This document shows positions 2,678-46,341 of a stretch of DNA of 50,237 bases, one piece after another. The stretch is taken from the IMG/VR virus record IMGVR_UViG_3300045971_000013, positions 1 to 50,237 of that record, one strand, 5' to 3'. A program made the position numbers and the translations under genes. The notes under the pieces were generated by a model, which ran no database searches, was not told the DNA's origin, and saw only the letters and a list, made by a program, of their open reading frames with translations. Source of the DNA: a virus. Numbering within the stretch: the first letter of the stretch is position 1; each line of letters begins with the position of its first letter.

Positions 2678-2691
2678 TGTTCCTAGTAACA
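2678..2691. promoter_or_regulatory. CTAG quasi-palindrome TGTTCCTAGTAACA, intergenic
   Basis: Exact motif copy in the 38-nt gap between 2176..2676 and 2715..4355; 23 nt before the ATG. Confidence 0.6.
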
Positions 2692-2714
2692 ACTTCTCCT
2701 AGTAGGTTAACGAC

Positions 2715-4355
2715 ATGACTTCAACCACGTTTGTATCTGGAACAACCATTGAATCTCCGTGGTTGAATGATGTCAATGATCTCACTTACAACAAAACATT
2801 CCCGGATGGGTCAGTAGTTTTATCTGCTCTTCCGGGTAGTGTTGTTGACTCTACTTTAGTTGGGTACACACCTGCTGGTACTGGTACTGTTGGAACTACG
2901 GTTCAAGCCAAGCTGCGTGAGAGTGTGAGCGTAAAGGACTTTGGTGCTGATCCTACTGGGGTTGCTGATAGTACCACTGCTTTTACCAGTGCAATTGCGG
3001 CAGCTTCTGAGGTATTCATCCCAACAGGGACGTACCTGATTTCCTCCACACTAACGATTCAGAATAAATCGGGCTTCCGTTTGCGTGGTTCCAACATGGC
3101 AACGGAATTAAAGTGGGTAGGTGCAAATGATGGCGTGATGATGAAGCTCACGCAGTCCCGTTTCACAACGCTTGAGAATTTCTATCTGAACGGAAACTCA
3201 ATCGCTGGCACAAACCTGCTGATTGATGACCCTGTCGGTGGAACCTACTCGACCACCGTTGGCGACTATCGCAAGATTCGCATGGGCAATAACCGCCCAG
3301 CAGGCACGCTGCCTGCACTGGACATTGGAACCTCAACCAGTACACAGATCGACGTTCAGACGTTCTACGACTGCACGATTGAGAACTCCACCAAGCTGTT
3401 CAGAATGCAGTCGGCAGTCACCCTGAATATCAACTTTGTATCCTGTGAGTTTGAAGCGTATCTGGCAGCATGCACAACCACCATCGGCATGGACTTGATA
3501 TCAGGTGGCAACTTGTCATTCACAAACTGCCTATGGGTTGGTCAAGCAATTACTGCGATGATCCAGCGATCTGTGCAATTTGGATTACTGGGGTTTGTGA
3601 ACTGCGAGACTGAAATCATCGGGCCAGGTTCTCCATTCCTGTATGCAGTAGATGACACCGCAAGTGTCAACAACTCGCCAGTCACTATTCTTAATTCCAC
3701 CCTCGGCTATGCGGGAACTGGTGGCATTAACTGGATTGACTATCGCCAGCGCGGAACGCTGCACATTCAAGGCAGCACGATCAATTCATCAAATGCTGTG
3801 AACCTTAACCATGCGCCGCCTGCATCGGCTTTGTTTTTGGATAACGGAAACCAGTACATCAATATAACTTTGGTTCAGGGCGCAAATAGCAAACGAGGTG
3901 GGTTCGATCAGATCACAGGCATCTTCCGAGCACCCGCCCTGTCTGGAAATGTCTACGGTACTGGTTCTGCGATCAGTGGAGTAATGCAAACACTGAGGCA
4001 GGGAACAGCCGATGCTACTTTGTTTAGGGCAACTGGTCTGGCCTCTGGTGGTGGTACTGCAAACGCAACCCAATGCGTAGAGACAAACACCGCTATGACC
4101 ACGGTGGCGAAGAATGTCGCGCATATCGAGGACGCGAGTTTGATTTTGATTCGCGGCACTGATGGGGGTGGTAATGACTTCCTTGATTTGGTTATCTCTA
4201 CAAATAGTGGAACGCCTACGGTAATAACGTCGAAAACTCTATCCGGTGCTCCGGCAGCACGAACCTACACAACCGCATCGTTTGTATTGCAGCTTGCGAT
4301 GGCCTCCGGAACTTACACCACCAACGCAATGTGGTGGCAAATGACTGCTAGATAA
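2715..4355 (+). CDS. Tailspike / depolymerase with pectate-lyase-like beta-helix
   Basis: 546 aa; VSVKDFGADPTGVADSTTAFTSAI...IPTGTYLI N-cap motif of Pectate_lyase_3-type proteins; N-terminal SPWLNDVNDLTY anchor motif. Confidence 0.7.
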   Translation: MTSTTFVSGTTIESPWLNDVNDLTYNKTFPDGSVVLSALPGSVVDSTLVGYTPAGTGTVGTTVQAKLRESVSVKDFGADPTGVADSTTAFTSAIAAASEVFIPTGTYLISSTLTIQNKSGFRLRGSNMATELKWVGANDGVMMKLTQSRFTTLENFYLNGNSIAGTNLLIDDPVGGTYSTTVGDYRKIRMGNNRPAGTLPALDIGTSTSTQIDVQTFYDCTIENSTKLFRMQSAVTLNINFVSCEFEAYLAACTTTIGMDLISGGNLSFTNCLWVGQAITAMIQRSVQFGLLGFVNCETEIIGPGSPFLYAVDDTASVNNSPVTILNSTLGYAGTGGINWIDYRQRGTLHIQGSTINSSNAVNLNHAPPASALFLDNGNQYINITLVQGANSKRGGFDQITGIFRAPALSGNVYGTGSAISGVMQTLRQGTADATLFRATGLASGGGTANATQCVETNTAMTTVAKNVAHIEDASLILIRGTDGGGNDFLDLVISTNSGTPTVITSKTLSGAPAARTYTTASFVLQLAMASGTYTTNAMWWQMTAR

Positions 4356-4356
4356 A

Positions 4357-5160
4357 ATGGCTAATAGCAACATTACCAATTTAGGAAGTATCGCAGTTCC
4401 CTTAGCTGGGACTGAGGTGGTGCCTATCTGGGGCACCACGCCCACCAAGAAGGTGACAGTCGAGAACTTGACTGCTGGAAGGACTGTGTCGGTAGGTCGC
4501 TTGCTGGTTGGGACATTGACTGCCGTAGGTACGAATGCGGGTGAGGCTTACTTTGGCAACAGTTCAGCTATCCGTTGGCGTAATGCAGCCAACACAGGTT
4601 GGTTAAATGTCATATACGTTGATGCAAGTAATAACTTACAGCTAGGTGGAGGTGGTGCAACTGCTGACTTAGTGATGGCAGTCGGTGGGATCGGTGAAGT
4701 AGCTCGCGTAACAACAACAGGTATTAAACCAATTAGCGGCAAGGGTATGGACTTCTCCGCAGTAACCGCTGCTGCTGGAATGACCAGCAAGGTGCTGACC
4801 AACTATGAGGAGGGCACTTGGACTCCAGCCGTCACTTCCCAAACTGGGGCTTTAACTGCCTATACCTCTTCTGGTCGATATACAAGAGTCGGTAATCAAG
4901 TAACACTAATTGGAACTTTCAAAGTTACTACGCCGGGTACTGCTGGTGGTGTCGCACTTATTACTGGATTCCCTTTTACGTCTAGCTCTGCGATGCCATC
5001 ATATGTGGGTGTGGCTAGAGAAAGCTCACTTACTGGAATTATTTATCAAGCTTTGGCTTATAGTAGTTCAACAAGTGGTCAAGTAGCGTCTACTATAAAT
5101 GGTCCTATTGATTGGACATTGAATGCCAGCTACATACTTACTATTGTCTACTTCATATAA
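4357..5160 (+). CDS. Tail fibre protein
   Basis: 267 aa, 1-nt gap after the tailspike; Gly/Thr/Ser-rich; NYEEGTWTP motif common in phage fibre distal domains. Confidence 0.5.
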   Translation: MANSNITNLGSIAVPLAGTEVVPIWGTTPTKKVTVENLTAGRTVSVGRLLVGTLTAVGTNAGEAYFGNSSAIRWRNAANTGWLNVIYVDASNNLQLGGGGATADLVMAVGGIGEVARVTTTGIKPISGKGMDFSAVTAAAGMTSKVLTNYEEGTWTPAVTSQTGALTAYTSSGRYTRVGNQVTLIGTFKVTTPGTAGGVALITGFPFTSSSAMPSYVGVARESSLTGIIYQALAYSSSTSGQVASTINGPIDWTLNASYILTIVYFI

Positions 5161-5173
5161 ACAGGGGTTATAA

Positions 5174-7318: not shown

Positions 7319-7332
7319 TGTTACTAGGAACA
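7319..7332. promoter_or_regulatory. CTAG quasi-palindrome TGTTACTAGGAACA, intergenic
   Basis: Exact motif copy in the 19-nt gap before 7337..7636; ends 4 nt before the ATG. Confidence 0.6.
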
Positions 7333-8054: not shown

Positions 8055-8801
8055 ATGAGTTCTACCTACACCGTAACCCGAGACCAGATCATTACCCTAG
8101 CTCTTCGTAAGCTATGTGTTCTTGAAATTGGTTCTACTCCTGATGCTGACACAGTGGCTAATGCTTCCATGTCTCTCAACCTCTTCGTCAAGCAGATGAG
8201 CACTGAAGGATTGAAGATGTGGAAGAACTCTGAGTTGATCATCCCTCTTACTTCAGGACAGACCTCATACGTGCTAGGAGGCTCTACAAGCACTTTAATG
8301 TATGACAGCCTAGCTCCTACCACAGCGATCACAGATAAGCCTCTGAAGGTCATCCAAGCATGGTACCGGACCACTACTGTTACGCCTGTTGTAGATACTC
8401 CGGTACTGCTGATCTCTAAGCAAGAGTACAACATCTTGGGTTCTAAGTTCTCTACTGGTACTGCTAACAGTTTGTACTACAGTGTTAAGGCTCTCAACGG
8501 TATCTTGTATGTCTACCTGACTCCTGATGCCTACTCTCAGGCTAACCTCTCTCTGCACTTGATTGCTCAGATGCCTCTGAATGACATCAGCTTGTCTACA
8601 GACATCCCTGACTTCCCTAACGAGTGGATGAATTGCTTGGTGTGGAACCTAGCTGACCAGATGGCCTTGGAGTACGGTGTTCCTATGAACCATAGGCAAG
8701 AGATCATGCAACGAGCTTTGCTCTACAAGTCAGAGTTGAACAACTGGGATGTTGAAGCTTCTAGTACCTTCTTCCAACCGCAAGCATTGGGGTATAGATA
8801 A
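8055..8801 (+). CDS. Head-to-tail adaptor, P22 gp4-like
   Basis: 248 aa; TRDQIITLALRKLCVLEIGSTPDADTVANASMSLNLFVKQM parallels the remembered P22 gp4 N-terminus ([38 protein letters not shown]). Confidence 0.6.
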   Translation: MSSTYTVTRDQIITLALRKLCVLEIGSTPDADTVANASMSLNLFVKQMSTEGLKMWKNSELIIPLTSGQTSYVLGGSTSTLMYDSLAPTTAITDKPLKVIQAWYRTTTVTPVVDTPVLLISKQEYNILGSKFSTGTANSLYYSVKALNGILYVYLTPDAYSQANLSLHLIAQMPLNDISLSTDIPDFPNEWMNCLVWNLADQMALEYGVPMNHRQEIMQRALLYKSELNNWDVEASSTFFQPQALGYR

Positions 8802-8893: not shown

Positions 8894-10346
8894 ACGCATC
8901 CCACTTACGCAACCTATTGAGAGTCGTAGTGGTAGCTTTGCTAAGGACTCTCGTTCTGTTAACTGTGTCTTTGAGACTCGGGATCAGAAGCGTGAGTTCT
9001 TAAAGCGTCCGGGACTTGTGTACGCTACTCAAGTAACTCCGATCACTCCACCTGCTTACACCCTAAGCCAAGGACTGACAGAGTTCAATGGGTACATGGT
9101 CTCCGTAGTAGCCAATGCTGTTAGAAAAACCACTACTGGATATGTTACTAGTAGCATAGGCACTACCTCTGTTTCTACTAGTCGTAGCTACTTTGCTAAG
9201 AACTTCTTGAGCACCTACTTGTTCTTTCACAACAAGGTCAACGGGTATCTCTACAGTAATGCTGGTGTCTTAACATCTCCTGCTGGTCTCCCCACTGGTC
9301 CTTACGTGTCTGGTACTGTCTTCTTGGACAACTACTTCTTTGTAGGAACTACCAACAACCGCATCTACAGTTGTGCTGTTGGTGATCCAACTACTTGGAA
9401 TGCTTTGGACTATGCAAGCTTTGAACAGTCTGCTGACACATTGGTTGGGATAGCCAAGCACTTGAACTACCTCGTAGCCTTTGGAGCTAGTAGTACCCAG
9501 TTCTTTTACGATGCTGCCAATGCCTCTGGTACGCCTCTGGCTATTGCTCAGAGCTATTCCAATGAAGTGGGTTGTGCTAGTGGAGACAGTATTGTTACTA
9601 CCGACAACACAGTGGTCTGGGTTGGTACTAGTAGCGCCTACGGTAGGGCTGTGTACCTCATGGATGGCACCACACCTGTCAAAGTGTCCACAGTTAACAT
9701 AGACAAACATCTTGAATCTGATGGTCTTGGAAAGGTCTCTGCTTACTCATACAAGTTTGGTGGGCACACTCTCTACATCCTGACTCTCCACAATAGCAAT
9801 GAAACTCTGGGCTATGACTTGAATGAGAAGATTTGGTATCAGTGGACCCAGTATGCAATGATGTCTAGTGACCAGCCTAATGCTGGTACTTACCAAGAGT
9901 CTTACTTCCGACCTACGTTCTATGCAGAGGTAGCAGGTGTTCCTTACCTGTTGGATGATGACACTGCAACCATCTATTACTTCAGCACTACGAACTACCA
10001 AGACAACGGGCAGGCAATCTACTGCCGTACCGTAACTGACATCGTAGACAACGGGACTACTAAACGTAAGTTCTATGGAAGGTTAGAAGTCATTGGAGAT
10101 AAGGTCTCTGGGACTATGCAAATACGGCATACAGGTGATGACTACAACACTTGGTCTAACTACAGGTCTGTTGACCTCAATGCTTCTAGAGCACAGACTT
10201 ATCTGGGTGGTTCTGATCGTCGTAGGGCTTGGGAGTTCCTCTGCACTAGCAACTGTGCTCTTCGCTTGGATGGTGCTGAGATTGACTTCCGTGTTGGAGA
10301 GATGGATCAAGAGCAGGGTGTTGGTGGTGGTAGGTATCGGAGATAA
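8883..10346 (+). CDS. Tail hub / nozzle protein, P22 gp10-like
   Basis: 487 aa; YLVAFGASSTQFFYDAANASGTPLAIAQSYSNEVGCASGDSIV parallels the remembered P22 gp10 block FIVCFGSSTIEYFSLTGATTAGAALYVAQPSLMVQKGIAG; follows the gp4-like gene. Confidence 0.6.
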   Translation: MATERIPLTQPIESRSGSFAKDSRSVNCVFETRDQKREFLKRPGLVYATQVTPITPPAYTLSQGLTEFNGYMVSVVANAVRKTTTGYVTSSIGTTSVSTSRSYFAKNFLSTYLFFHNKVNGYLYSNAGVLTSPAGLPTGPYVSGTVFLDNYFFVGTTNNRIYSCAVGDPTTWNALDYASFEQSADTLVGIAKHLNYLVAFGASSTQFFYDAANASGTPLAIAQSYSNEVGCASGDSIVTTDNTVVWVGTSSAYGRAVYLMDGTTPVKVSTVNIDKHLESDGLGKVSAYSYKFGGHTLYILTLHNSNETLGYDLNEKIWYQWTQYAMMSSDQPNAGTYQESYFRPTFYAEVAGVPYLLDDDTATIYYFSTTNYQDNGQAIYCRTVTDIVDNGTTKRKFYGRLEVIGDKVSGTMQIRHTGDDYNTWSNYRSVDLNASRAQTYLGGSDRRRAWEFLCTSNCALRLDGAEIDFRVGEMDQEQGVGGGRYRR

Positions 10347-10348: not shown

Positions 10349-11245
10349 ATGGACCTTGTTGTAGAAGCTATCAATTCTGTTTCAACTAAGGAAGGCTTTG
10401 ACCTTCGTAACCTAGACTCCAAAATGGAGTTAGCTGCTGTCTTGCTTGAGCAGAAGCAGCCAGTCAACTCTGTGTTCCACAGGTTTGGTGGTGGCTTGTA
10501 TATACGTGAGGCTCATTACCGTGCTGGGTTCTTGATCGTTGGACAGGAGCATGTCTCGGAGCACATGAACGTTCTTCTTAAGGGCAGTATCAATGTCATT
10601 GACAACGATGGTGCTGTGCAGAAGCTCACTGCTCCACACATGTTTGTTGCTAAGGCTGGTAGCAAAGTTGGCTTCACCTTAGAGGATGTTGTGTGGCAAA
10701 ATATCTATGTTACTAGTAGCACTGATGTTGCTCATTTGGAGTCTGTTCTGTTTAAGACTCCAGACCTCTTAAAAGAACATCAGGAACAAAAGCTACTGGC
10801 AGAGTACCCACTGCACGAAGAAGACCGACAAGACTTCTTGCAAGTCATCACTGAGTCCGGGTGGACTGTTGAAGACGTTGAGTTAGCATCTAAGCATAGG
10901 GCAGACTGTATCCCCTTCCCAGAAGGTAGCTATAGCATCTCAACTGGTGACTCCCCTATCCAAGGCAAAGGCATCTTCTCTACTGCTGAGATTAAACAAG
11001 GTTGCATCATTGCACCTATGCGCCTAGGAGGACATCGTACTCCTGCTGGGTACCTTACGAATCACTCTAAGACCCCTAACGCCATAGCTTGCATTGATCA
11101 TCTAGGAGATATGTTCCTAGTAGCAGCCGTGGATATAACTGGGATGGTTGGTGGTGATCTTGGTGAAGAGATCACTCTCGACTATCGACAAGTAATGAAA
11201 TTAAATGGACTCTGGAAAGGGAACCAATCATGTCTTCAGCATTAA
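10349..11245 (+). CDS. Cupin-like N-domain fused to a SET-domain methyltransferase
   Basis: 298 aa; C-terminal GKGIFSTAEIKQGCII, NHSKTPN (NHSCxPN-type) and GEEITLDY (ELxxDY-type) SET signatures; N-terminal beta-rich HRFGGGLYIRE...LLKGSINV...FVAKAGSKVGF cupin-like region. Confidence 0.7.
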   Translation: MDLVVEAINSVSTKEGFDLRNLDSKMELAAVLLEQKQPVNSVFHRFGGGLYIREAHYRAGFLIVGQEHVSEHMNVLLKGSINVIDNDGAVQKLTAPHMFVAKAGSKVGFTLEDVVWQNIYVTSSTDVAHLESVLFKTPDLLKEHQEQKLLAEYPLHEEDRQDFLQVITESGWTVEDVELASKHRADCIPFPEGSYSISTGDSPIQGKGIFSTAEIKQGCIIAPMRLGGHRTPAGYLTNHSKTPNAIACIDHLGDMFLVAAVDITGMVGGDLGEEITLDYRQVMKLNGLWKGNQSCLQH

Positions 11246-11895: not shown

Positions 11896-13152
11896 ATGGC
11901 TAATCTAATGCAAGACATGGCCTCTGGGAGTGATGCAGCACTCCAGATGCAAAAGAACATGGTTGCTGCTCCTGATGTGCAACAGGCGCAAGCCAATGTC
12001 ATGCAGGAACAAGCTCTCAAGCTTGAACAAGAACGTGCTACGGTTGAGAAGACTAAGCTAGGTAACATCGTTACCGAGTCTGGTATCCAACTGGATAAAC
12101 AGAAGCAAGCTGCCATAGCTGCTCTTGAGAAGTCTGCTGGTTACGAACAACTCTCTGGCTCTGAGAAGGCTATGAAGCAGGCTATGACCATCATGTCATT
12201 TGATCCTGCTGCTGGTGGTAAGTTGCTTGATGCTGTTGCCGTTGCTGATCTTAAAGAAGCTCAAGCACAAGCTAAGACCTTGGACAATGCTCGTGAGCAG
12301 ATCAACATGGCTGCGTCTGTCATTGGTCAGTGGCCTGATGACAAGGTTGGTGAGAACTTTAAGAAGCTACCTGAAGCATCTCAGAAGGCAGTCATTGACA
12401 AGGTTGGTCAACAAGCTTGGGATGAGATGGATGGCAAGGCGAAAAAGAAGGTTGTGGATAACCTGTTCCTAAGTACGAACCAGAAGGTCCAAGAGCAACG
12501 TATGGCTCTGGATTTGGAGAAGACCAAGTTGCATAACGCTATGGAGCTTGAGAAGGTTCGTCTTCACAATCTCAGTACCATTGCTGCTAGAGAAGCTCGT
12601 GCAGGTAAAGCATCTAACATGTGGACCACTGCCAACAAAGAACTAGACTCATTGCGTAAGGACCCTGATCGGGTTAAGGCTCGTGAGAAGCTAGATGCTG
12701 ATGTAGAAGATGCCGAAGTTGCTGCTAAGAAGTCTACTTGGATTGGTGGCTATGAGTCTACTGATCCTAAGACCCAAGAGAAACAGACCTTCAATAGCAA
12801 GGCTGCTTATGACAAATGGCAATCTGCTGTTCAGAAGAGAGACAAGTACATTGCTAGTACTCTTGATGATGAACAAGCTATCATTGAGACTCTCCCGGAA
12901 GAAGCCAAGGAGATCAAAAACAACATGCTTGAGCGTGTTAAGAAGCAACGTCTAACGTTGTCTCCTGAAGATGCTCCTAAGCCTGCTCCCAAACCTGACG
13001 CTGGTACTCCTGCTCCTGCTGCCGATGTTCCTAGTAACAAGGGTGGTGATGGTACCCAAGGTAAGCCACTGGCTATGCCTGCTGACAAGTCTAAACTCGT
13101 GCATGGTAAGTACTATGATATTCCCGGCAAGGGACCCACTCTCTACAAATAA
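11896..13152 (+). CDS. Lys/Glu-rich coiled-coil internal virion protein with a Pro-rich C-terminus
   Basis: 418 aa; long helical K/E/Q/A composition; PKPAPKPDAGTPAPAADVP tail. Confidence 0.4.
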   Translation: MANLMQDMASGSDAALQMQKNMVAAPDVQQAQANVMQEQALKLEQERATVEKTKLGNIVTESGIQLDKQKQAAIAALEKSAGYEQLSGSEKAMKQAMTIMSFDPAAGGKLLDAVAVADLKEAQAQAKTLDNAREQINMAASVIGQWPDDKVGENFKKLPEASQKAVIDKVGQQAWDEMDGKAKKKVVDNLFLSTNQKVQEQRMALDLEKTKLHNAMELEKVRLHNLSTIAAREARAGKASNMWTTANKELDSLRKDPDRVKAREKLDADVEDAEVAAKKSTWIGGYESTDPKTQEKQTFNSKAAYDKWQSAVQKRDKYIASTLDDEQAIIETLPEEAKEIKNNMLERVKKQRLTLSPEDAPKPAPKPDAGTPAPAADVPSNKGGDGTQGKPLAMPADKSKLVHGKYYDIPGKGPTLYK

Positions 13153-13167: not shown

Positions 13168-16100
13168 ATGGCTGCTGATCCCTTCACAGAGTACTACTCC
13201 AAAGGTAGTGCTACTCCTGCCCCTGAAAAGTCTGTAGAGGCTGATCCGTTTGCTGAGTTTTATTCCAAAGACTCATCTGGTGAGCCTGTCCGTCCTACGG
13301 ACTCTGCACCTGACTCTGGAATCAAAGGAGACATCCACAACATAGCTCGGACATCTGCTGAGACAGTCCCCAGTGCTGCTGCGGGTATTGTTGGCTTTGG
13401 TGCTGGTATGTCTGCTGCTGCTCCTGTTGCTGCTGTTGCTGCTCCTTTGACTGGTCCCTTTGCTCCTATCACTGCTGGTGTGATTGAGTTGGCTGGGGGA
13501 CTAGGTGGTGCTTGGGCTGCTTCTGGTGCTGCTCAGAAGGTAACTAACTGGATGCACGAAGCCTTTGCTCCTGATGACTTTGCTGCTCGTCAGAAGGAAA
13601 AGGAAGCGCATCCATACGGAACCTTTGCTGCTGAGTTGGGTACCAACTTACTTGGCATGTCTCCTAAGACTGGTGTTGAAGTTGCAGGAAAGATTCTTAC
13701 AAAGCCTATCGTTCAACGTGGTGCTTCTGCTGGATTGATGGGTGCTATCGAAGCTGGTAGTGAGTACGCTGACAAGGGTGAGATTGATCCCTTGAAGGTT
13801 GGAGCTAGTATGGCTGCTGGTGCAACTATGCCCGGTTTTAACCCTGCTGGTAAGAAGCTGTTCAATGCTGGTGAGAAGGCTGTAGACGCTCTTAAAGGCA
13901 AGAAGCCTACCTCTACCCCTACCGGAGTCCCTCCGAAGCCTCCTGAAGGGGCTACGCCAGAGGAGAAGGCTAACTACATCTCTGAGCTAAAGCGCCGTAA
14001 GGCTGCTTTGGATGAGAAGGCTACTCTCAAACAAACTGCTATTAGGAACAAAGAGACTGGTGAGATTGAACTCATGGGTCCTAAGCACGATGAAGCACGT
14101 AAACAGGAGACCACCGATACACATGAACAAGGGTTCGTTGATGAGCGTGGTAACTTCCTCACTCGTAAAGAGGCTTGGGACAGAGCTACGAAGACTGGAC
14201 AGATTCCTAAAGACCAAGTACCAGAGAATGTGAAAGAGGGTTTGCATAGTGGTGACTTGCGTAAAGCTGGTGTAAAAGACTTTGAGATCACCAAGGACAA
14301 ACCTGCTGGTGAACCTGTTGCTCCTGAAGAGCCTAAAGCTCCTGTGTCTCGTGAAGACTTCAAGAAGGCTATAGGCGAGTTCGATGATCAGATGCACAGC
14401 AAGATGATCGAAAGCATGGAAGCTGACATGGCTGGGGATCATGCTGGTAAGGCTAAGGCTGATGCTGAGTTCGATGCTATGCAAAAGCAGAAGGACAAGA
14501 TGCATCAAGACATGCCAGAGGTGCAGTTTGAAGACAAGGCTAAACCTAGCTGGGAAGAGTTGCACGACCACCTGTGGGGTGCCAAGACTGTTGGTGAAGC
14601 TTTTGATCGTATTGCTAAGGCTGGTATTGGTTCCAAGACTCAGAGAACACTTCTTAGTGCTCTCAATCGTTCTGGCTACATTCGTGAAGCCACATTGTCA
14701 CTACACAATGAGTTGATCTCATACACAAACCAAGCTGGTGAGTTTAAGAAGGATGCTTCTGGTCTCTACACTGGTGGAGATCAGCATCATGTTGATCTTG
14801 GACAGCATGGTAGTGTTGCTGTGTTGGCGCATGAAGCTGTTCATGCTGGCACTCAGAAGCTCATTGACTCTGGCAAGTCTAAAGCTGCCATTGAGTTGAA
14901 ACGTCTGTATGAGTTGCACAAGTCTGGTGTAGAAGGACAGTACGAAGCTGCATTAGAGAAGTACAAAGCTGCTAATCCCAAGGCAACTATGGGAGAGCTT
15001 TCTGCATTCAAACAAGCCAGTACTTATGGCTTGACTAATGCACATGAGTTCATTGCTGAAGCCTTTTCTAACAAGCGTTTCCGTAAGCTCTTGTCTGAGT
15101 TACCTGCTGACCCCAACAAGCAACCTTCCAAGCTGAACAACATGTGGACAGCATTCAAGGATGCTGTTGCTGAAGGATTGGGCTTAGAAGCTAATCGCAG
15201 TGCTCTCGATGATGTCTTGGATCAAGGCATCAAGATGATTGAGAAGTCTCAGAAGTTTGAATCCAAACCTGCTGTTGATAGTCTTTACCCATCGGTCAGT
15301 CCTGAAGAAGCATCCAAGCTGGGTGAAGCTACAACTGCTGAAGTTGGTAAAGCTGCTGAGAAGGTGGATGTACGAACCATTCCTAACAAGGAAGCTTTCT
15401 TAGATCACGCTACTGACATCTATCACAAGTACGGGGAAGCTGAAGCTATAAAGTTCTTTGAGGACTATCGTATTGACCAGAACAAACGCTCTATTCCTGT
15501 ACCGGATACCCAGCAAGGATTGGATGATGCTCTGCACAAGATTGATACTTGGCAGACTGCTGACAAGTCAGAGCATGTCATTGGGTACAAAGAAACATCC
15601 TTGGATGGTATGGGTGAGCGTCCATCTCTCTTGCATCCTATTGAACGTAAGGCATGGGACAAGAAGGCTAAGGCTCAACTTGCAACCATGAATGAGCTTC
15701 GTGAAGCTGCATTCTTTGTTCGTGAGAACGGTGGCAAGGTTACTGGCAAGCTAGGTGAAGTCCTAGATGCTATTGACTCTGAGAACCTTTCCTTGGTTCG
15801 TAAGATCAAGGCTCTTGGTGGTGATGTCGGAGATGAGTTCGCTACTGGTCAATCACGTATCCGTGTCCAAGGTGGTGTTACTAGTAACTGGAAGAAGATG
15901 ATTACGGAGTTGTTTGCTAACCGTATGCCATTCTCCGAGAAGGTTGCTGACACTGCTAACGCTGCACACGAACGTAAGGTGTTCCAGTTGGATGATGGTC
16001 GTGTCATTGAGATACACCGTCAACCTGAAGATCGTCAGATGAAGTACCTTGATGAGAAGGGTAAGGAACAGACCAAGGAAGTCTTCAAGGGCACTGAGAT

Positions 16101-20906: not shown

Positions 20907-21135
20907 ATGTGACTATTCTGTTGTCTGGAACAATGATTGCAAGCTTCTCTTGTGGTGCTACTAGTAACAAGTCAGCTTTGTGCCCTTTGATTACTGGGGC
21001 TATGATTCCTTTAGTCAGTCCCAAAGAGTAGTAGGCAAGCTCATGGATAAGCTCTTGGAGGTACACAGAAGCATCCAGAGGGGATAGGGTACCAACCTCT
21101 TGATTAACGAGTTCTAGGACTTCTTTAGCGGTCAT
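20905..21135 (-). CDS. Hypothetical protein (last gene of minus arm)
   Basis: 76 aa ORF; ATGA coupling to the upstream ORF. Confidence 0.5.
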   Translation of the reverse strand: MTAKEVLELVNQEVGTLSPLDASVYLQELIHELAYYSLGLTKGIIAPVIKGHKADLLLVAPQEKLAIIVPDNRIVT

Positions 21136-25507: not shown

Positions 25508-25536
25508 AAAAAGGGCCACTGATTGCTCAGTGACCC
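25508..25536 (-). terminator. Rho-independent terminator after the SSB-like gene
   Basis: Minus strand GGGTCACTGA-GCAA-TCAGTGGCCC (10-bp stem with one G.U, GNRA loop) followed by TTTTT. Confidence 0.75.
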
Positions 25537-25563
25537 TAGTTAGAACTTTAACTCAAGTTGGAT

Positions 25564-31769: not shown

Positions 31770-31782
31770 GTTACTAGGAGCA
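31769..31782. promoter_or_regulatory. Variant CTAG motif (minus strand TGCTCCTAGTAACA) abutting the primase start
   Basis: The last A of the motif is the A of the primase ATG; about 20 of 24 nt shared with the 25355..25380 copy. Confidence 0.5.
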
Positions 31783-31822: not shown

Positions 31823-31858
31823 TCAAAATACAAAAGGCAATGGCCCCCGAAGGAGCCA
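31823..31858 (-). terminator. Rho-independent terminator / attenuator between the AAA+ gene and the primase
   Basis: Minus strand TGGCTCC-TTCG-GGGGCCA (UUCG tetraloop, one G.U) followed by TTGCCTTTTGTATTTTG. Confidence 0.6.
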
Positions 31859-31873
31859 CTGAGTTTCTAGACT

Positions 31874-33016: not shown

Positions 33017-34800
33017 GTCAATATCCTCTTTTCTATCAATGTAAGTAACTTGCTCGGTATCTCTTGCGGTTTATAAACCACATCGTTTCTCTTGTAGTAG
33101 TGCGTCACAGAGTCACTGCAAAGCCCTAATCCATAGATGTCAACTTGCTTGGATTTCTCTATCTCATCTATCACTTGATGTGTGAACTCTTCTAAACCTA
33201 CACTACTCTTGGATGCAGCAGGAGAGCCATCAGACATCACAACCAACAACCGCTTCTTCTCTTTCCTCTTGATCAAACGGTTATGCGCCCACAGAATGTT
33301 TTCCCCATCGGGATTGCCATTCATAAAGCAACTGCTTTTAGCAAAATCTCGTTCCATCTGATCGTTAGTGATCTTCAAGTCGTTGAATGACTTGTAGACA
33401 AACATCAACGGGACAGCCGTGTAAGCAGCACCATAGTCATCACTGAACCCAATGACCTCAAGAGGGATACCCAAGGTAGAACAGACCTCATTCAGCAAGA
33501 GCGTAGAAGCCAATGCGTAGTAAGCTTTCTGACCCATCATGGACCCAGACATATCCACTAGCACTGTGATTGCAGCATCCAGAGTCTTGTTCTCGATCCT
33601 AGTCTTGAATACCTTCTCGTTGAATCCGGGTGCATCAAAGCAGATACGAGAGAGTCTGGACTGATCTAGCTTACCCTTGCGAGTGCCATACTGAGTCTGT
33701 ACTCGTGCTCTGATCTGAATGAGCCTACGAACCTGTTGAGCAAAGTTCTCTTGTGTTACTAGTAACGGTTTAACGTCATGGTTGTAACCAGCCAAGAACC
33801 TAGTGGCACCCATTGGTTTGAAGTACTTGTCTTGACCCAAGCTACGTGGGTAGTCAGCAACTAGGAACTTGTCGTAGTCAGTCATGTCCCAATGACCATC
33901 GGACTTAACCGGATCAAAGTTGATACCAACCTTACCCATCTCTCCCCCCTCTTCAGGCATTGTGAGAGAGAACTTGCTCAAGTCATCTGCTGTGAGTACC
34001 ACCTTGATAACCTTGTACTCGTCATCCTCCGCATCCGAAGCATCTTTATCACCTCCTTCGGCAAGATCACCTGAAGCAGGTGCAACGGCCTTTTCATCTC
34101 CTTTTCCTTTTCCTTTACCCTTAGCTGCTGCCTTTGCTTTAGAGAGAGCCTCTTCAACTTCCTCTTTGCAATCGTGTCCAATGGACTTTAGGATGTCCAA
34201 AGCAAGCTTGTGTGTAGCTCTGGTTCCTTCTTCCTTGTCTAGAATGCTATGGCAACGAACAAGATCACGAGAATAGCTATTAAGAACATCTGTGATCTTC
34301 TTATCAGGGGTATGTTTACTAGAAGCCAACTCAATCAATGGAAAGTTGGATGCAGACACTTTGGATTCCCAACAAATTAACGCAGACACCATCTTTGCTA
34401 TCAGAGTGGTCTCTTTAATTGATTTCTTGAGAATGGTCTTCACTAACTCTGAAGAGCAATCATCCCAGTTGTCTTTGAAGCCCTTGTACTCCTGTGCTTC
34501 GATAACATTCACACGAGAATCTTCTAAGAAGTTCCATGTGAACATCAACAAGCCTTTGGGGTCTAGCTTTATCTCTTTGAGCACCTCAAACGACGAGAAA
34601 CGATCATGGGCTACTTCGTGGTCAATAGAGGCCATAAGCTGCTGCAATTCACGTTCCGTGGTCTTGTAGGTGATCATAGGCAAGTAGATAGTCTTGCCAT
34701 CATGCCGAGGCTGATTGATGTCCTCAAACACAACCGAGATGCCAGCCCTGCCAGCACTAGCTCGGATGTACTTCATCACCTGAATGGCTTGAGTCAGCAC
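33013..34800 (-). CDS. von Willebrand factor A domain protein, CobT-like
   Basis: 595 aa; MIDAS VLVDMSGSM in the C-terminal half; acidic/lysine-rich linker (KGKGKGKGDE...DASDAEDDE). Confidence 0.75.
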   Translation of the reverse strand: MLTQAIQVMKYIRASAGRAGISVVFEDINQPRHDGKTIYLPMITYKTTERELQQLMASIDHEVAHDRFSSFEVLKEIKLDPKGLLMFTWNFLEDSRVNVIEAQEYKGFKDNWDDCSSELVKTILKKSIKETTLIAKMVSALICWESKVSASNFPLIELASSKHTPDKKITDVLNSYSRDLVRCHSILDKEEGTRATHKLALDILKSIGHDCKEEVEEALSKAKAAAKGKGKGKGDEKAVAPASGDLAEGGDKDASDAEDDEYKVIKVVLTADDLSKFSLTMPEEGGEMGKVGINFDPVKSDGHWDMTDYDKFLVADYPRSLGQDKYFKPMGATRFLAGYNHDVKPLLVTQENFAQQVRRLIQIRARVQTQYGTRKGKLDQSRLSRICFDAPGFNEKVFKTRIENKTLDAAITVLVDMSGSMMGQKAYYALASTLLLNEVCSTLGIPLEVIGFSDDYGAAYTAVPLMFVYKSFNDLKITNDQMERDFAKSSCFMNGNPDGENILWAHNRLIKRKEKKRLLVVMSDGSPAASKSSVGLEEFTHQVIDEIEKSKQVDIYGLGLCSDSVTHYYKRNDVVYKPQEIPSKLLTLIEKRILT

Positions 34801-35259
34801 TTAGACACCCATCAAGTACTTGTGGACTTCTTCGCTAACCACCTTAGCATCCAGATGGTCAGGAACGTTCCCAATCAATGCACATACCTTGCTGATGTAC
34901 TCATCCAAAGTAACCAGTTCCTTGCTGTCGGTCTTGGAGTCTTTGATCTTGTTCTGCAAGTAGGTCTTGCCATAGAACGTACCGTTGCTATCACACAAGC
35001 CGATACCGAGCTTCATTGCTGAAGTGATAACAGACTTGCTAGAACGCCAAGGTCCGGGCATAGAACCCACTTCAAACTCTTTCTTGATGAGCTTCTCAGT
35101 GTCCTTGAGTTCCTTGATAAATGTCTCCACAGTGCTATGCGAATAGCCCACAGTGATCATCTTCTCAAACGTGCTGACTGCACTAGCGTCAGACACCAGA
35201 GACTCCGTAGCTGCTTCATAGAGCTTTGGAGACACATCTATCTTCTTTGCTTCGGTCAT
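34801..35259 (-). CDS. Hypothetical early protein
   Basis: Start taken at MTEAKKID with GAAGGAGG RBS; 152 aa. Confidence 0.5.
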   Translation of the reverse strand: MTEAKKIDVSPKLYEAATESLVSDASAVSTFEKMITVGYSHSTVETFIKELKDTEKLIKKEFEVGSMPGPWRSSKSVITSAMKLGIGLCDSNGTFYGKTYLQNKIKDSKTDSKELVTLDEYISKVCALIGNVPDHLDAKVVSEEVHKYLMGV

Positions 35260-35540: not shown

Positions 35541-35995
35541 TAACTCCTGTTTGATATAAGTTTTTGTTTACGACGATGTTCTTGCGCCCATAGTCGTGCT
35601 CGTTCTCTAACTGTCTCTTTATTTTTCTCTCTCCAAGCTCTTTGGTAAGCTAGATTGTCATCACACAACCCACCTTTCCAATTCCCACTGCCCTCTCGTT
35701 TTGCATTTCTACCTTTGAGAACCATGTCAGCCATGTTCTCTTGATGTGTTCCTAAGAACAAGTGATCTGGATTCACACAGGCTCGGTTATCGCAAGTGTG
35801 TAGTACACACATTCCATTTGGAATAGGGCCTTTGAACATTTCATAGGCTGCTCTATGCGCCCTAATGTTTTTCTTTGTTTTTATAGAAAATAGACCATAA
35901 CCGTTTGTATTTTTACAACCAGTAAATGTCCAACAACTGTCTATTTCTTGTTTGATACGGCGCTCAAACCGAAATTGATCTGTTTCGTTATACAT
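35540..35995 (-). CDS. HNH homing endonuclease
   Basis: 151 aa; [14 protein letters not shown]...AHRAAY...[22 protein letters not shown]; paralogous in pattern to 26106..26537. Confidence 0.8.
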
Positions 35996-36891: not shown

Positions 36892-36905
36892 TGTTCCTAG
36901 TAACA
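36892..36905. promoter_or_regulatory. CTAG quasi-palindrome TGTTCCTAGTAACA, intergenic
   Basis: Exact copy between the early-cassette terminator and hairpin cluster 1; preceded by TACCGCATGTT, which recurs at 38170. Confidence 0.55.
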
Positions 36906-37030: not shown

Positions 37031-37049
37031 AAAAAGGGGCCGAAGCCCC
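37031..37049 (-). terminator. Rho-independent terminator of the first early gene
   Basis: Minus strand GGGGC-TTCG-GCCCC followed by TTTTT, 14 nt after the stop of 37063..37308. Confidence 0.75.
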
Positions 37050-37062
37050 TAGGTGGTCGTAA

Positions 37063-38022: not shown

Positions 38023-38203
38023 ATCGACGCTGCTAATAGACAGACGTTAGGCGTAGAAGAGAGGAGATAGGGGGAGTTGTAGCCTAGCCGTACCTCTAAG
38101 TAGTAGTAGAGAGGGTAGGGGGGAGCAAATGTAGTTCTGTGTTAATTTACTTAACAAGGTTTACAACGCTACCGCATGTTTCTAAACAAGAGGGGGTTGT
38201 TGA

Positions 38204-38217
38204 TGTTACTAAGAACA
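38204..38217. promoter_or_regulatory. Degenerate CTAG motif TGTTACTAAGAACA in the control region
   Basis: 13 of 14 match; a second, shortened copy TGTTTCTAAACA lies at 38177..38188. Confidence 0.4.
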
Positions 38218-38544
38218 GTACTTAGTAAGTAGGCTCGTCCCTACGCTTCGACAGAAGCTACGGTGCTACGCACCTTGGGACTCGCTACAAGGATTCTGTT
38301 CACCTCTGTAAGAGGGTAGCTACTAATAAGAAGGGTCCCCTGTGGGACCCTATTAATACTGCTATGTTATATACCTGACCAGAAAAATAGAAAAACAGTA
38401 AAAAGAAAAAAGAATGGTTGCATTGTAGAAAAGTACAAAAACCTGTCAAGTCTTATTTTTCAACTAAAAACCCTAATGGGTTTCCATACAGTACTCCTGT
38501 AAAGGATAACATAGTACACTCCGCTTCATTGTAAGGAGATAGAC

Positions 38545-39078: not shown

Positions 39079-40599
39079 ATGACCAAGTTGAACGCAGCAG
39101 TCATGGAGGGCTTCATCAACTCGGTGTTGAGAAGCAACTTCGATAAGCCTGCTGATACCCCCAGTTTTCACCGAGAGGTGTGGGAACTTGTTACTAGTAA
39201 CAATAAGCAGGTAGCCATAGCAGCACCTCGTTACCATGCCAAGAGCACAGCAGTAACCCATGCCTATACCCTAGCTTCAGTTCTATTCCGGGAGTCTCGC
39301 TATGTCCTTATTGTGTCGGATACAGTTACACAGGCTGTTCAATTCCTTGGAGACATCAAGAAGGAACTCTTGGACAATGAGGACCTTAGATCGTTGTTCT
39401 CAGTATCTAGCTTCCCGAAAGACACGGAAGATGATCTCATCGTCGAGATGGAAGATGGACACACTTTTCGCATACAGGCGAAGGGCAGCGAACAAAAACT
39501 TCGCGGTCTTAAATGGGCTAACCTCCGACCAGACCTAGTGATAGGTGATGACATGGAGAACGACGAGATTGTGATGAACAAGGATCGTCGTATGAAGTTC
39601 AAGAGGTGGTTCTATGGTGCTCTCATTCCTTGTATCTCTTCTAGTGGCAAGATTCGCATTGTCGGTACGATCCTACATTTGGACTCCCTTCTTGAGAACC
39701 TTATGCCCAGTTCTCAACTTAGCACTCTACGAGGTAATGGTAAACCCTTACTAATCCAAGAGGACTTGAAGGAGTACACGGACCATAAGCTACCTTGGAA
39801 GTCTGTGAAGTACAGGGCACATACGGATGACATGAAGAAGCTCTTGTGGCCCGAGATGAAGTCTGCGGAGCAGTTCAGGCTTCAGAGAGAGGACTACATA
39901 CGTCAGGGTCTAGCTGATGTGTACTCTCAGGAGATGTTGAACATCCCCTTGGACATCACGGACACCTTCTTTAAGAAGACTGACTTCGTACCCATGAAGC
40001 CAGAGGATGATAAGAAGCGTTTGGTCTACTATGCCACTTGTGACTTGGCTGTATCTCAATCCCAGAGGGCTGACTACTCTGCTTTTGTAGTGGGTGGTAT
40101 GGATGAGGAAGGCAGGTTGTACTGCAAGCATGTCATTAAAGAACGTATGGACGCTTTGGAGATTGTCGATACAATCCTGATGATCCAAAAGATTTATAAG
40201 CCCGTACTCTTTGGTCTTGAACAGGGTACTATCCAGAAAGCTATTGGTCCGGTTCTCAATGGTGAGATGCTAAAGCGAGGTGAGTTTATTTCTACTGTGC
40301 TGCTCAAGCCTAGCGGAGATAAGCTGACTAGAGCACGTAGTATCCAAGCCCGTATGAGAAGTGGAGCATGTAAGTTCGACAAGAACGCAGACTGGTACCA
40401 AGGATTTGAAGACGAGCTTCTTCGGTTCCCACGGGACAAACATGACGATCAGGTTGATGCTTGGGCTTATCTTGGTCTCATGCTCGACAGGATGTGGGAA
40501 GCTCCAACCGACAAAGAAGTAGAGGCCGAAGAGTACGATGCTTATGTACGAGATAACCAAGGGGCCAATGATGGGCGCTCCGTAACCTGTGGGTACTGA
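39079..40599 (+). CDS. terL: Large terminase subunit
   Basis: 506 aa; AIAAPRYHAKST (Walker A-like), LVIGDDMENDE (Walker B), nuclease half with YATCDLAVS and KHDDQVDAWAY. Confidence 0.85.
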   Translation: MTKLNAAVMEGFINSVLRSNFDKPADTPSFHREVWELVTSNNKQVAIAAPRYHAKSTAVTHAYTLASVLFRESRYVLIVSDTVTQAVQFLGDIKKELLDNEDLRSLFSVSSFPKDTEDDLIVEMEDGHTFRIQAKGSEQKLRGLKWANLRPDLVIGDDMENDEIVMNKDRRMKFKRWFYGALIPCISSSGKIRIVGTILHLDSLLENLMPSSQLSTLRGNGKPLLIQEDLKEYTDHKLPWKSVKYRAHTDDMKKLLWPEMKSAEQFRLQREDYIRQGLADVYSQEMLNIPLDITDTFFKKTDFVPMKPEDDKKRLVYYATCDLAVSQSQRADYSAFVVGGMDEEGRLYCKHVIKERMDALEIVDTILMIQKIYKPVLFGLEQGTIQKAIGPVLNGEMLKRGEFISTVLLKPSGDKLTRARSIQARMRSGACKFDKNADWYQGFEDELLRFPRDKHDDQVDAWAYLGLMLDRMWEAPTDKEVEAEEYDAYVRDNQGANDGRSVTCGY

Positions 40600-44092: not shown

Positions 44093-44094
44093 AC

Positions 44095-44108
44095 TGTTCC
44101 TAGTAACA
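44095..44108. promoter_or_regulatory. CTAG quasi-palindrome TGTTCCTAGTAACA, intergenic
   Basis: Exact copy in the 32-nt gap after the scaffold gene; 16 nt before the ATG of 44125. Confidence 0.6.
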
Positions 44109-45333: not shown

Positions 45334-45345
45334 GGAGTACACATC

Positions 45346-46266
45346 ATGGCTGGAGTTATTACCACCGCATCGCATCCCAAGGCTCTATGGCCCGGTATCA
45401 AAGCTTGGTGGGGTCAAACCTACAACGAGCATCCTGAAGAGTACTGCGATCTGTTCGACAAGGACACCTCTTCGCAGAACTACGAAGAAGATGTTCAGTT
45501 GTCGGGCTTTGGTCTCGCACCAATCAAGTCTGAAGGTGCTGGCGTAGCATACGATTCGGAAATCCAAGGCTTCACTACTCGTTACACACACATTGCTTAC
45601 GCAATGGGTTACATCGTGACGAAGGAAGAAATGGATGACAATCTGTACGAGACTGTCTCTAAGAAACGTGCTGCTGCATTGGCTATGTCTTTCCGTCAAA
45701 CGAAAGAGAACGTTGCTGCTAACGTTTACAACCGTGCCTTCTCTACCACCTATCTGGGTGGTGACGGTATTGCACTGTGTGCGACTAACCACCCCAACAC
45801 CTCTGGTGGCACTTGGGCTAACAAGCCTTCAGTGGATGTGGACTTGTCTGAAGCTGCTTTGGAAGATGCAGTGATCGCAATCATGGGTCTGCAAAATGAC
45901 CGTGGCTTGCTGGTTGCTATTCAACCCAATAGCTTGCACATCGCTCGTCAAGAGTTGTTCAATGCTCAACGCATTCTGCACTCTAGCTACCAAACAGGTA
46001 ACGCCAACAATGACATCAACGTCATCAAGTCTGGTAACTACCTGCCCGGTGGTTTCAAGGTGAACCACTACTTCACAAGCCCACACGCTTGGTTTATCCG
46101 TAACACCATCCCCGGTGGTACTGGTATGAAGTACTACGAGCGTCATGCCATTGCCTTCGACCAAGACAATGACTTCGACACCATGAATGCCAAGGCTAAG
46201 GGCTATGAGCGTTATTCGTTCGGCTGGTCTGATCCTCGTGCAATCTGGGGCGTTAACGGTCCTTAA
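45346..46266 (+). CDS. Major capsid protein candidate (HK97-fold, Mu gpT-like pattern)
   Basis: 306 aa; position after the scaffold; followed by the strongest terminator in the genome. Confidence 0.6.
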   Translation: MAGVITTASHPKALWPGIKAWWGQTYNEHPEEYCDLFDKDTSSQNYEEDVQLSGFGLAPIKSEGAGVAYDSEIQGFTTRYTHIAYAMGYIVTKEEMDDNLYETVSKKRAAALAMSFRQTKENVAANVYNRAFSTTYLGGDGIALCATNHPNTSGGTWANKPSVDVDLSEAALEDAVIAIMGLQNDRGLLVAIQPNSLHIARQELFNAQRILHSSYQTGNANNDINVIKSGNYLPGGFKVNHYFTSPHAWFIRNTIPGGTGMKYYERHAIAFDQDNDFDTMNAKAKGYERYSFGWSDPRAIWGVNGP

Positions 46267-46288
46267 ACCTAGCTTAGGCTAGACACGC

Positions 46289-46325
46289 AACCCCTTAGAT
46301 CAAAAGTCTAGGGGGTTTCTTTTTT
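46289..46325 (+). terminator. Strong rho-independent terminator after the capsid gene
   Basis: AACCCCTTAGA (46289..46299) pairs with TCTAGGGGGTT (46307..46317), 11 bp with one G.U, then TCTTTTTT. Confidence 0.85.
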
Positions 46326-46327
46326 AA

Positions 46328-46341
46328 TGTTACTAGGAACA
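46328..46341. promoter_or_regulatory. CTAG quasi-palindrome TGTTACTAGGAACA abutting the terminator T-tract
   Basis: Exact copy 2 nt after the terminator U-tract. Confidence 0.6.

Follow-up and report, generated by a model that had tools for sequence, protein, structure and literature searches.

The stretch of DNA analysed here (the window, i.e., all 50,237 nucleotides of IMG/VR virus record IMGVR_UViG_3300045971_000013) looks like a complete podophage genome of ~50 kb that is organised in two divergent arms, and it is studded with copies of a 14-bp palindromic motif, the subject of this report. The late arm carries genes for terminase subunits, portal, major capsid, tail and tailspike proteins and a lysozyme, while the early/replication arm is transcribed from the minus strand and encodes CobT-like and CobS-like proteins, replication enzymes and a small protein that we refer to as RSAKS (Table 1). 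An open reading frame (ORF) starting at 47883 encodes at least 785 residues, is rich in serine, glycine and threonine and runs past the 3' end of the window. When the end of the window is joined to its start (47883-50237 + 1-409) this long ORF reaches its end ~23 codons further on, an indication that the genome is complete and circularly permuted. The phage is apparently a lytic, Zobellviridae-like podophage from freshwater. Integrase and repressor domains were not detected among the scanned window proteins, and relatives of its TerL were not found in prophages of 185,579 species genomes.

The motif is a real cis-element that is strongly selected and widely conserved. Scanning the window with the pattern TGTTMCTAGKAACA and counting each match with up to two mismatches as a copy, yielded 33 copies where 0.64 are expected. 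The 12-bp core GTTNYTARNAAC is matched exactly 21 times against 0.21 expected, including a site at 18877 with three mismatches to the narrow pattern, and the array comprises ~34 sites. The sequence-only reading that drew attention to the motif had counted seven occurrences of the 12-mer GTTCCTAGTAAC or its reverse complement. All seven exist where it had placed them, with 0.00 expected in 100 dinucleotide shuffles, and the copies at 25357 and 31769 read TGTTACTAGGAGCA on the plus strand as it had claimed, but the family extends far beyond the 7 to 11 sites then listed. The degenerate copy seen at 38204 is genuine, whereas the one proposed at 38177..38188 is not recognisable on direct reading of the sequence. 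The 14-mer was not found in a literature text search, in which the 12-mer turned up in two unrelated papers.

Frequency matrices summarise the 33 sites of the window as well as 378 distinct sites of relatives. The element is exactly 14 bp long, with the dyad consensus (T)GTT[A/C][C/T]TA[G/A][T/G]AAC(A), a half-site T-G-T-T-[A/C]-[C/t]-T and near-invariant positions G2, T4, T7, A8, A11 and C13. The flanks are uninformative in both matrices, so that the TAA or AAA previously thought to precede all copies is not a property of the motif. About three quarters of the copies (~25-26 of 33) are intragenic, at relative ORF positions between 0.06 and 0.92, and they occupy both of two stop-free frames, both strands and both arms without any orientation pattern on either arm. 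Copy density amounts to 0.91 per kb in the early and 0.52 per kb in the late arm. Eight of the 33 sites fall into non-coding DNA, which accounts for 6.9% of the sequence (~3.5-fold enrichment, p=0.0014); this tally counts the copy at 31769, subsequently found to be intragenic. Five of the eight perfect copies are intergenic, and the gaps 2677-2714, 7318-7336 and 44093-44124 contain little besides one copy each. The earlier description of the motif as an element of gene-module boundaries thus fits the perfect copies and does not extend to the family as a whole; the emphasis arose because the exact 12-mer is biased to non-coding DNA, in which perfect copies come at no cost.

Table 1. Copies of the 14-bp motif, transcription signals and selected genes in the window
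Feature	Position	Strand	Context
Perfect copy TGTTCCTAGTAACA	2678..2691		fills 38-nt gap between ORFs 2176-2676 and 2715-4355
Perfect copy TGTTACTAGGAACA	7319..7332		fills 19-nt gap 7318-7336, 4 nt ahead of ATG 7337
Copy, 2 mismatches (degenerate)	8678..8691		within ORF 8055-8801
Copy, 1 mismatch	9143..9156		within ORF 8883-10346
Copy, 1 mismatch	10708..10721		within ORF 10349-11245
Copy, 1 mismatch	11112..11125		within ORF 10349-11245, other open frame than copy 10708
Perfect copy	13026..13039		within ORF 11896-13152
Copy, 2 mismatches	14037..14050		within 1518-residue ORF 13168-17724
Copy, 1 mismatch, exact core	15876..15889		within ORF 13168-17724
Copy TGTTATTAAGAACA, exact core	18223..18236		within ATP-grasp-like ORF 17840-19168
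Copy TGTTATTAAGAACG, exact GTTNYTARNAAC core	18877..18890		3 mismatches to narrow pattern; within ORF 17840-19168
Copy, 2 mismatches	19500..19513		within ORF 19168-19650
Copy, 1 mismatch	19869..19882		within lysozyme ORF 19654-20118
Copy, 1 mismatch	20956..20969		within ORF 20905-21135 (-)
Copy, 1 mismatch, exact core	22035..22048		within ORF 22012-22221 (-)
Copy, 1 mismatch	23531..23544		within ORF 23304-23558 (-)
Copy, 2 mismatches	24165..24178		within endonuclease I gene
Copy, 1 mismatch, exact core	24515..24528		non-coding, 3 nt upstream of ATG 24511 (-)
Copy, 2 mismatches, exact core	25039..25052		within exonuclease gene
Copy, 1 mismatch	25357..25370		~140 nt downstream of terminator 25537-25512 (-)
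Perfect copy TGTTCCTAGGAACA	26295..26308		within HNH gene 26106-26537
Copy, 2 mismatches, exact core	27334..27347		within HNH gene 27236-27784
Copy, 1 mismatch, exact core	28626..28639		within PolA N-terminal fragment 27798-29174
Copy TGTTCTTAGGAACA	29860..29873		near 3' end of DnaB-like helicase gene
Copy, 1 mismatch	31769..31782		primase N-terminus, encodes A-P-S-N; ~56 nt downstream of terminator 31861-31838
Copy, 1 mismatch, exact core	33754..33767		within CobT-like gene
Copy, 1 mismatch, exact core	35747..35760		within HNH gene 35540-35995
Perfect copy	36892..36905		shares A of minus-strand ATG 36892-36890; ~130 nt downstream of terminator 37050-37035
Copy, 1 mismatch, exact core	38204..38217		in 1.2-kb control region; ~115 nt downstream of hairpin 38351-38332
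Perfect copy TGTTACTAGTAACA	39189..39202		TerL codons L-V-T-S-N-N
Perfect copy	44095..44108		in 32-nt gap 44093-44124
Perfect copy	46328..46341		11 nt after capsid-gene terminator
Copy, 1 mismatch	48278..48291		within long ORF starting at 47883 that runs off window end
Copy, 1 mismatch, exact core	48803..48816		within long ORF starting at 47883
Weak hairpin	7301-7315		directly upstream of copy 7319
Intrinsic terminator	25512..25537	-	after SSB-like gene, then copy 25357
Intrinsic terminator	31838..31861	-	after CobS-like gene, then copy 31769
Intrinsic terminator	37035..37050	-	after ORF 37063-37308, then copy 36892
Terminator/attenuator-like hairpin	38332..38351	-	downstream of early promoter, then copy 38204
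Strong sigma-70-type early promoter	38449-38422	-	TTGACA-16-TACAAT
Intrinsic terminator	46289..46317	+	after major capsid gene, adjoins copy 46328
Lysozyme gene	19654		late arm
TerS gene	38545		late arm
TerL gene	39079		late arm
Portal gene	40602		late arm
GroES-like gene	42905		late arm
Capsid gene	45346		late arm
Tail and tailspike genes			late arm
Endonuclease I gene	23938-24393	-	early arm
Exonuclease gene	24568-25293	-	early arm
SSB-like gene	25564-26109	-	early arm
PolA gene		-	early arm, split by HNH insertions
DnaB-like helicase and primase genes		-	early arm
CobS-like gene	31874-33016	-	early arm
CobT-like gene	33013-34776	-	early arm
RSAKS gene (candidate binder)	34801..35259	-	152 residues, early, immediately upstream of CobT-like and CobS-like genes

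The motif is under selection as DNA, including at synonymous sites inside genes. In codon-preserving shuffles, one of the checks that had been proposed for the motif, synonymous codons are permuted within each gene such that protein sequence and codon usage are kept. With up to two mismatches, 26 intragenic copies are observed against 3.2 +/- 1.55 (maximum 7) in the shuffles, and with up to one mismatch 19 copies are observed against 0.55. In an alignment of the TerL 5' region of 71 relatives, five third-codon positions within the copy at 39189-39202 are 92-96% conserved, whereas most flanking third-codon positions are 40-80% conserved. Another proposed check, a search of related genomes, covered 80 IMG/VR loci with TerL proteins 69-90% identical to that of the window and 75 loci found via the exonuclease, and in these relatives the motif occurs at 0.29-0.82 copies per kb. 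Its positions are partly syntenic, a pattern of maintenance with turnover. The copy at 39189 is kept in 69 of 76 relatives, that at 29860 in all 12 alignable ones and that at 31769 in 12 of 21, and a copy lies within 250 nt downstream of the SSB-like gene in 16 of 36 relatives, 15 of these at 140-200 nt. The copy at 44095 is lineage-specific (1 of 36), and recurrent sites of relatives are lost or degraded at some positions of the window. In the relatives, the primase ORF begins upstream of 31769 with MI[N/D]RKLILANAPSN..., so that this copy is intragenic and does not abut the primase start codon as had been assumed.

The way in which the motif varies indicates a site for a symmetric dimer on double-stranded DNA. 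Isolated exact half-sites outside dyads occur 18 times in the window against 18.3 expected, so that enrichment is restricted to the full dyad. At positions 5 and 10, 11 of the 33 sites have A..T, 4 have C..G and 17 have mixed pairs (C5 with T10, A5 with G10), as expected if the half-sites vary independently. The arms exhibit no compensatory covariation, changes of T3 to C and of A12 to G being uncompensated, and the substitutions that are tolerated show perfect symmetry. It is the combination of independent half-sites, symmetric tolerance and dyad-only enrichment that argues for a symmetric dimer on duplex DNA, and it points to an element that is not a hairpin, a promoter or a peptide. Recognition of a half-site by a monomer, e.g., by primase on single-stranded DNA, was rejected because half-sites on their own are at chance level.

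Among the genes examined, RSAKS alone tracks the motif. All RSAKS-positive contigs examined are motif-rich, across several divergent lineages with 38-56% G+C and ~30-40% protein identity. Densities are 0.36-0.56 per kb in family A, 0.26 per kb in family B and 0.46 per kb overall in 14 diverse IMG/VR RSAKS loci with 39-56% G+C, and three contigs from other assemblies (L439, L440 and L441) contain 6, 16 and 15 exact cores against 0.06, 0.05 and 0.03 expected. The central hexamer is lineage-specific and reads CTTAAG, CCTAGG or ACTAGT. Five related phages that are RSAKS-negative by hidden Markov model (HMM) and tblastn searches, i.e., Vibrio phage ICP2, cobavirus T5S1, MEP401, Alcaligenes phage QDWS535 and MW202796, have 0-1 core match each. 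As the motif is confined to RSAKS-encoding phages, RSAKS is likely to be its binder. CobT and CobS are kept in ICP2 and T5S1, and ICP2 also has the SSB-like gene, which speaks against all three as partners of the motif. HNH endonucleases were dismissed since they are missing from relatives that keep the motif, as were the very early small ORFs (36-37.6 kb), which are not conserved among such relatives. The suggestion that the motif could be an operator for a dimeric phage regulator has thus gained ground through the dyad-only excess, the independence of positions 5 and 10 and the co-occurring phage protein family.

RSAKS is characterised by a near-invariant helix, [LM]Px[AS][WY]RSAK[ST], followed by a GKTxLEKxIK motif, and in its AF2 model, which is otherwise all-alpha, the conserved helix is followed by a beta-hairpin (pLDDT, the predicted local distance difference test, 87). 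A profile search of 1.84 billion representatives recovered 282 clusters at 50% identity, Foldseek comparison with BFVD returned uncharacterised phage proteins only, and tblastn with three RSAKS proteins found no match in 50,697 GenBank phage records, so that no cultured representative is known. In every lineage the gene heads the CobT-CobS-replication module. Family B podophages (L238, L282-L292, L414-L422) have structural genes unrelated to those of the window and share with it only the CobT-CobS-primase-DnaB-PolA-SSB module at about 40% identity, and they bear the motif at 0.3-0.65 copies per kb. Their early 171-residue protein contains the helix (W/L)RSAK(S/C)V in common with the window RSAKS (hhalign P=0.0017), and an HMM built from distant RSAKS members finds all six family B proteins (E=9e-8 to 6e-3). 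A copy is present ~50 nt upstream of the RSAKS gene in all six family B loci and a second one ~35 nt further upstream in four of them. The proximal copy of L418 lies over an extended -10 element (TGcTATAAC). These promoter-overlapping sites look like autoregulation by RSAKS. Family B also encodes a 171-residue sigma-factor-like protein (PHROG 1740; L238 12077-12592; L283-L291), ECF-like (extracytoplasmic function-like) by our reading of its sequence. The window lacks a homologue of the PHROG 1740 protein and the motif is thus independent of it. Contig L427 (56% G+C) contains two paralogous RSAKS genes at 8275 and 9869, ~1.6 kb apart, and the outermost positions of its motif are C/G (CGTTCTTAGGAACG).

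Motif copies and terminators go together. All five strong intrinsic terminators of the window are followed by a copy 11-140 nt downstream, and 53 of 64 relatives have one no more than 20 nt past the stop codon of the capsid gene. In those examples that were read, this copy sits 1-3 nt from the stop, with the terminator hairpin directly behind it. The pairing is therefore conserved and the order is not, which argues against a promoter placed after a terminator. A protein bound there and modulating termination or read-through would be consistent with the conserved pairing.

Most probably, the motif array is the operator array of a new family of phage DNA-binding proteins. We give an even chance to the more specific proposal that it constitutes a dispersed set of double-stranded sites for a homodimeric regulator, with RSAKS as the binder and a role in transcription. 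RSAKS would be made early, from the promoter at 38449-38422, its dimers would occupy the ~34 sites over both genome arms, and the bound protein would act as a genome-wide regulator or insulator of transcription by host RNA polymerase. Dimers located by terminators, between genes or inside them would restrict read-through and determine how much each transcription unit yields relative to the others. We infer both the binding of RSAKS to the motif and the transcriptional consequence, as opposed to one in replication, packaging or protection. Transcription control or insulation is favoured because copies adjoin intrinsic terminators.

A number of observations weigh against this proposal. The link between RSAKS and the motif is correlative and founded on co-occurrence, and since RSAKS-positive contigs share a replication module, common descent inflates the number of independent observations. 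Comparison of the RSAKS model with PDB structures by Foldseek yielded no known DNA-binding fold (best E=2.2), sequence and profile searches against PDB gave no match, and Pfam searches, which included 36 diverse family members, gave none either. The near-invariant RSAKS helix sits uneasily with the lineage-specific central hexamers. In family A, a copy is found 25-75 nt upstream of the RSAKS gene in only 10 of 70 loci, and the window has none near its own RSAKS promoter. Six of the eight perfect copies reside in the late (structural) arm and copies also occur mid-gene in long late genes, a distribution that a simple model of shutting off early transcription does not account for. Finally, intergenic DNA is scarce and the co-location of copies and terminators may partly reflect the unconstrained DNA available; the pairing fits plain use of such DNA as well.

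A serious rival, which we nevertheless consider unlikely, is that the same sites, probably with the same binder, mark or organise the phage chromosome and do not act on transcription. Bridging or compaction, a replication or packaging compartment, multiple initiation sites or protection of 'self' DNA come into question, maybe together with the CobS/CobT-like proteins. What makes the rival serious is that the late arm harbours most of the perfect copies and that mid-gene copies are numerous. Moreover, sites span the whole genome including late structural genes, their density and not their exact position is maintained while individual sites turn over, and RSAKS heads the module of CobT, CobS and replication genes throughout. 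Spacing is slightly more even than random (coefficient of variation 0.74 vs 0.96, p about 0.04), which is marginal support. Dispersed, dimer-bound palindromes of 12-16 bp that are often intragenic are typical of ParB-parS, KorB-OB, Noc-NBS and SlmA-SBS, and palindromes of this size and placement also serve the host chromosome organiser MatP. The parS half-site TGTT(T/C)C resembles TGTT(A/C)C of the motif. The window site, however, measures 14 bp as compared to 16 bp for parS and 13 bp for KorB, the spacing of half-sites differs, site density is 10 to 100 times higher and Pfam revealed neither a ParBc nor a TetR-family domain in the window proteins scanned. Resemblances to the operators of TrpR, Zur, DeoR, LexA and SlmA and to parS were set aside as spacing or key bases differ. 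Chromosome organisation is further disfavoured by ICP2 and T5S1, in which the AAA+/VWA pair evidently needs no motif, and by lineages with sites in the early arm only, L439 having six of six there and none in 8 kb of structural arm. The family B copies ~50 and 85 nt upstream of RSAKS, the proximal one lying over the L418 promoter, fit poorly with it too. No other tight iteron-type origin cluster was seen, save four copies over ~1.2 kb of the L441 control region, and the control region of the window holds a single copy.

That control region (1.2 kb) has features of its own. It contains three copies of another palindrome, (A/G)ACCGCTTGGCGG(T/C), at 37384, 37457 and 37505 (37384-37518), two tandem DnaA-box-like TGTGGATAA repeats at ~38000-38022 (region 37995-38022) and several G+C-rich hairpins, and it may be an origin or early-operator region. 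(TA)n tracts of some relatives, considered as well, are limited to control regions and unrelated to the motif.

It is more doubtful still that the binder is a host-encoded protein, a global regulator or nucleoid-associated protein that is hijacked or titrated by the phage, and that the link to RSAKS is phylogenetic. In its favour, Pfam and PHROG scans of ~70 window proteins detected no helix-turn-helix, ribbon-helix-helix, ParB or sigma domains, leaving the window without a recognisable DNA-binding domain, and the same motif occurs in lineages with unrelated structural genes. However, the core is conserved in contigs of 38-56% G+C from different datasets, implying diverse hosts, and RSAKS-negative related phages of known hosts are free of the motif. 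When the exact 14-mer was searched in the 185,579 species genomes, the recurrent hits among the 120 matches listed (L294-L413) were coding coincidences, and no multi-copy host signal showed among those listed. The recurrent hits fall into genes for ribosomal protein S17 of Flavobacteriaceae (VVTSNKM) and HAD-hydrolase genes (GIVTSN) and are not regulatory.

We deem it very improbable that the motif provides single-strand nick sites of the T5 or LUZ24/tf type or that a phage endonuclease targets it. Three HNH endonucleases and an endonuclease I are indeed encoded in the window, and the LUZ24/tf nick consensus TACT/RTGMC resembles TACT|AG in the motif. Yet relatives that keep the motif lack the HNH genes and have an intact PolA there, a dyad nicked on both strands would amount to a double-strand break, and known nick consensuses are asymmetric and confined to a single strand. 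The three HNH_3/HNH genes are located at 26106-26537, 27236-27784 and 35540-35995; the first and third are paralogues whose motif copies occupy equivalent sites within the gene, the second splits the family A DNA polymerase, which is intact in relatives (646 residues), and in ICP2 an HNH gene is likewise annotated inside the polymerase gene.

There is equally little to recommend an RNA element (hairpin, RNase processing site or translational operator) or a promoter for a modified host polymerase, both of which had been put forward by the sequence-only reading. The intergenic copies at 7319, 24515 and 36892 abut start codons, the G-variant gives a Shine-Dalgarno-like AGGA, which at 24515 can serve as such, and copies follow terminators. 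Against this, pairing of UGUU with AACA is not maintained by compensatory changes, the symmetry is that of double-stranded DNA, about 75% of the copies are deep in ORFs at arbitrary positions, spread uniformly in long genes and far from start codons and ribosome-binding sites, the palindrome is directionless with flanks devoid of -10 or -35 information, shuffled sequences contain more sigma-70-like matches than the window does, where such matches fall elsewhere than the sites, and in the relatives that were read the capsid copy precedes the terminator hairpin.

As for known systems, the proposed transcriptional array finds its closest parallels by mechanism, if the analogy holds, in the stoperators of phage L5 and the CIRs of phiC31. 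In Cluster A mycobacteriophages, ~25-35 stoperators of 13-14 bp are distributed over early and late operons of a ~50 kb genome and are bound by one phage protein, L5 gp71, which blocks elongating RNA polymerase. They are asymmetric, bound by a monomer and oriented relative to transcription, and the protein that binds them is a temperate phage's immunity repressor. Density is comparable (~1 site per 1.5 kb), whereas the window motif is a dyad with independent half-sites and no orientation, and neither integrase nor repressor was recognised among the scanned window proteins. We favour the view that the array may be a symmetric, lytic-phage analogue of stoperators. Many scattered copies recognised by a single phage regulator are also found for the c repressor of phiC31 (CIRs) and the C1 operators of P1. 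These phages are temperate and the sites are essentially intergenic, beside promoters, in contrast to the window copies, which are mostly intragenic and held by selection at synonymous sites. To our knowledge, dispersed operator-like phage repeats are understood only for repressors of temperate phages.

The closest described phenomenon is the 17-bp palindrome 5'-TGTTCGGNNNCCGAACA of Cluster O mycobacteriophages (Corndog and relatives), of which 34 copies of unknown function lie between and inside genes, more commonly in one arm (PMC4351075). Their positions are mostly common to relatives with occasional loss via single substitutions, and the authors interpreted them as targets of a dimeric DNA-binding protein whose part in regulation is unclear (PMC4351075). 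The window array works alike and is not the same element. It shares with Cluster O the more than 30 dyad copies per genome, their inter- and intragenic placement and their presence in relatives. The outer bases TGTTC...GAACA are similar as well, a resemblance that may be coincidental. The Cluster O element is organised as 7-3-7 (17 bp, TGTTCGG/CCGAACA) with invariant arms, that of the window as 7-0-7 (14 bp, TGTT[A/C][C/T]T) with degenerate ones. The carriers differ too, siphoviruses of Actinobacteria versus a Zobellviridae-like podophage, and in Cluster O no binder has been tied to the palindrome by co-occurrence.

The present array extends what has been described in several respects. Its dispersed sites are strictly dyad-symmetric and belong to a phage group that is apparently lytic and abundant in the environment. 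Purifying selection at synonymous sites is directly evident, the motif persists in lineages with ~30-40% protein identity and 38 to 56% G+C, and there is a specific, testable candidate binder from a family of no known function. As a decidedly tentative extension, RSAKS could represent a new class of sequence-specific DNA-binding protein with 0.3-1.3 palindromes per kb, which selection preserves down to the synonymous positions of capsid, terminase and replication genes, forming a whole-genome cis/trans system in widespread uncultured lytic Zobellviridae-like podophages, with a central hexamer that co-diversifies by lineage and with chromosome-wide control or organisation, possibly together with the CobS-like AAA+ and CobT-like VWA proteins. 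If true, a widespread 'hypothetical' phage family would receive a function, a defined pair of protein and 14-bp site with naturally varying specificity would become available, and coding sequences of lytic phages would carry a dense second layer, regulatory or architectural. The motif is also a cheap metagenome marker for this phage group.

Other phages feature palindromes of their own. The RSAKS-negative Alcaligenes phage vB_Af_QDWS535 (OK172329.1, L081), whose TerL is 52% identical to that of the window, contains 19 copies of a different 14-bp palindrome, TCCTAAYRTTAGGA, between 22902 and 48105, where 0.47 would be expected. Only one of them is outside the early arm, and of those compared with the annotation, several adjoin gene starts on the upstream side. 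The array seems to be an analogous system that relies on another binder. In an unrelated phage (IMGVR_UViG_2814123409_000001, L220), TGTTAC-NN-GTAACA repeats including the exact 14-mer occur at 1202-1407 inside a 496-residue ORF, a replication initiator by sequence reading, and encode a repeated 'GNTxET' peptide. We judge these repeats to be lambda-type origin iterons and the identity with the 14-mer to be coincidental.

Some further genes of the window deserve mention. The product of the SSB-like gene at 25564-26109 is a conserved protein of 181 residues that combines a glycine-rich linker with an acidic tail at the C-terminus (last residues ...ANPF), and it is read as SSB or gp2.5-like from these two features alone. 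It is homologous to gp55 of ICP2 and belongs to a PHROG without assigned function. Among the late genes are one for an ATP-grasp protein (GARS-like, 17840-19168) and weak candidates for a glycosyltransferase (409-1146) and a SAM-methyltransferase (1582-2166). One may speculate that the ATP-grasp protein and the putative glycosyltransferase and methyltransferase modify the virion or the receptor.

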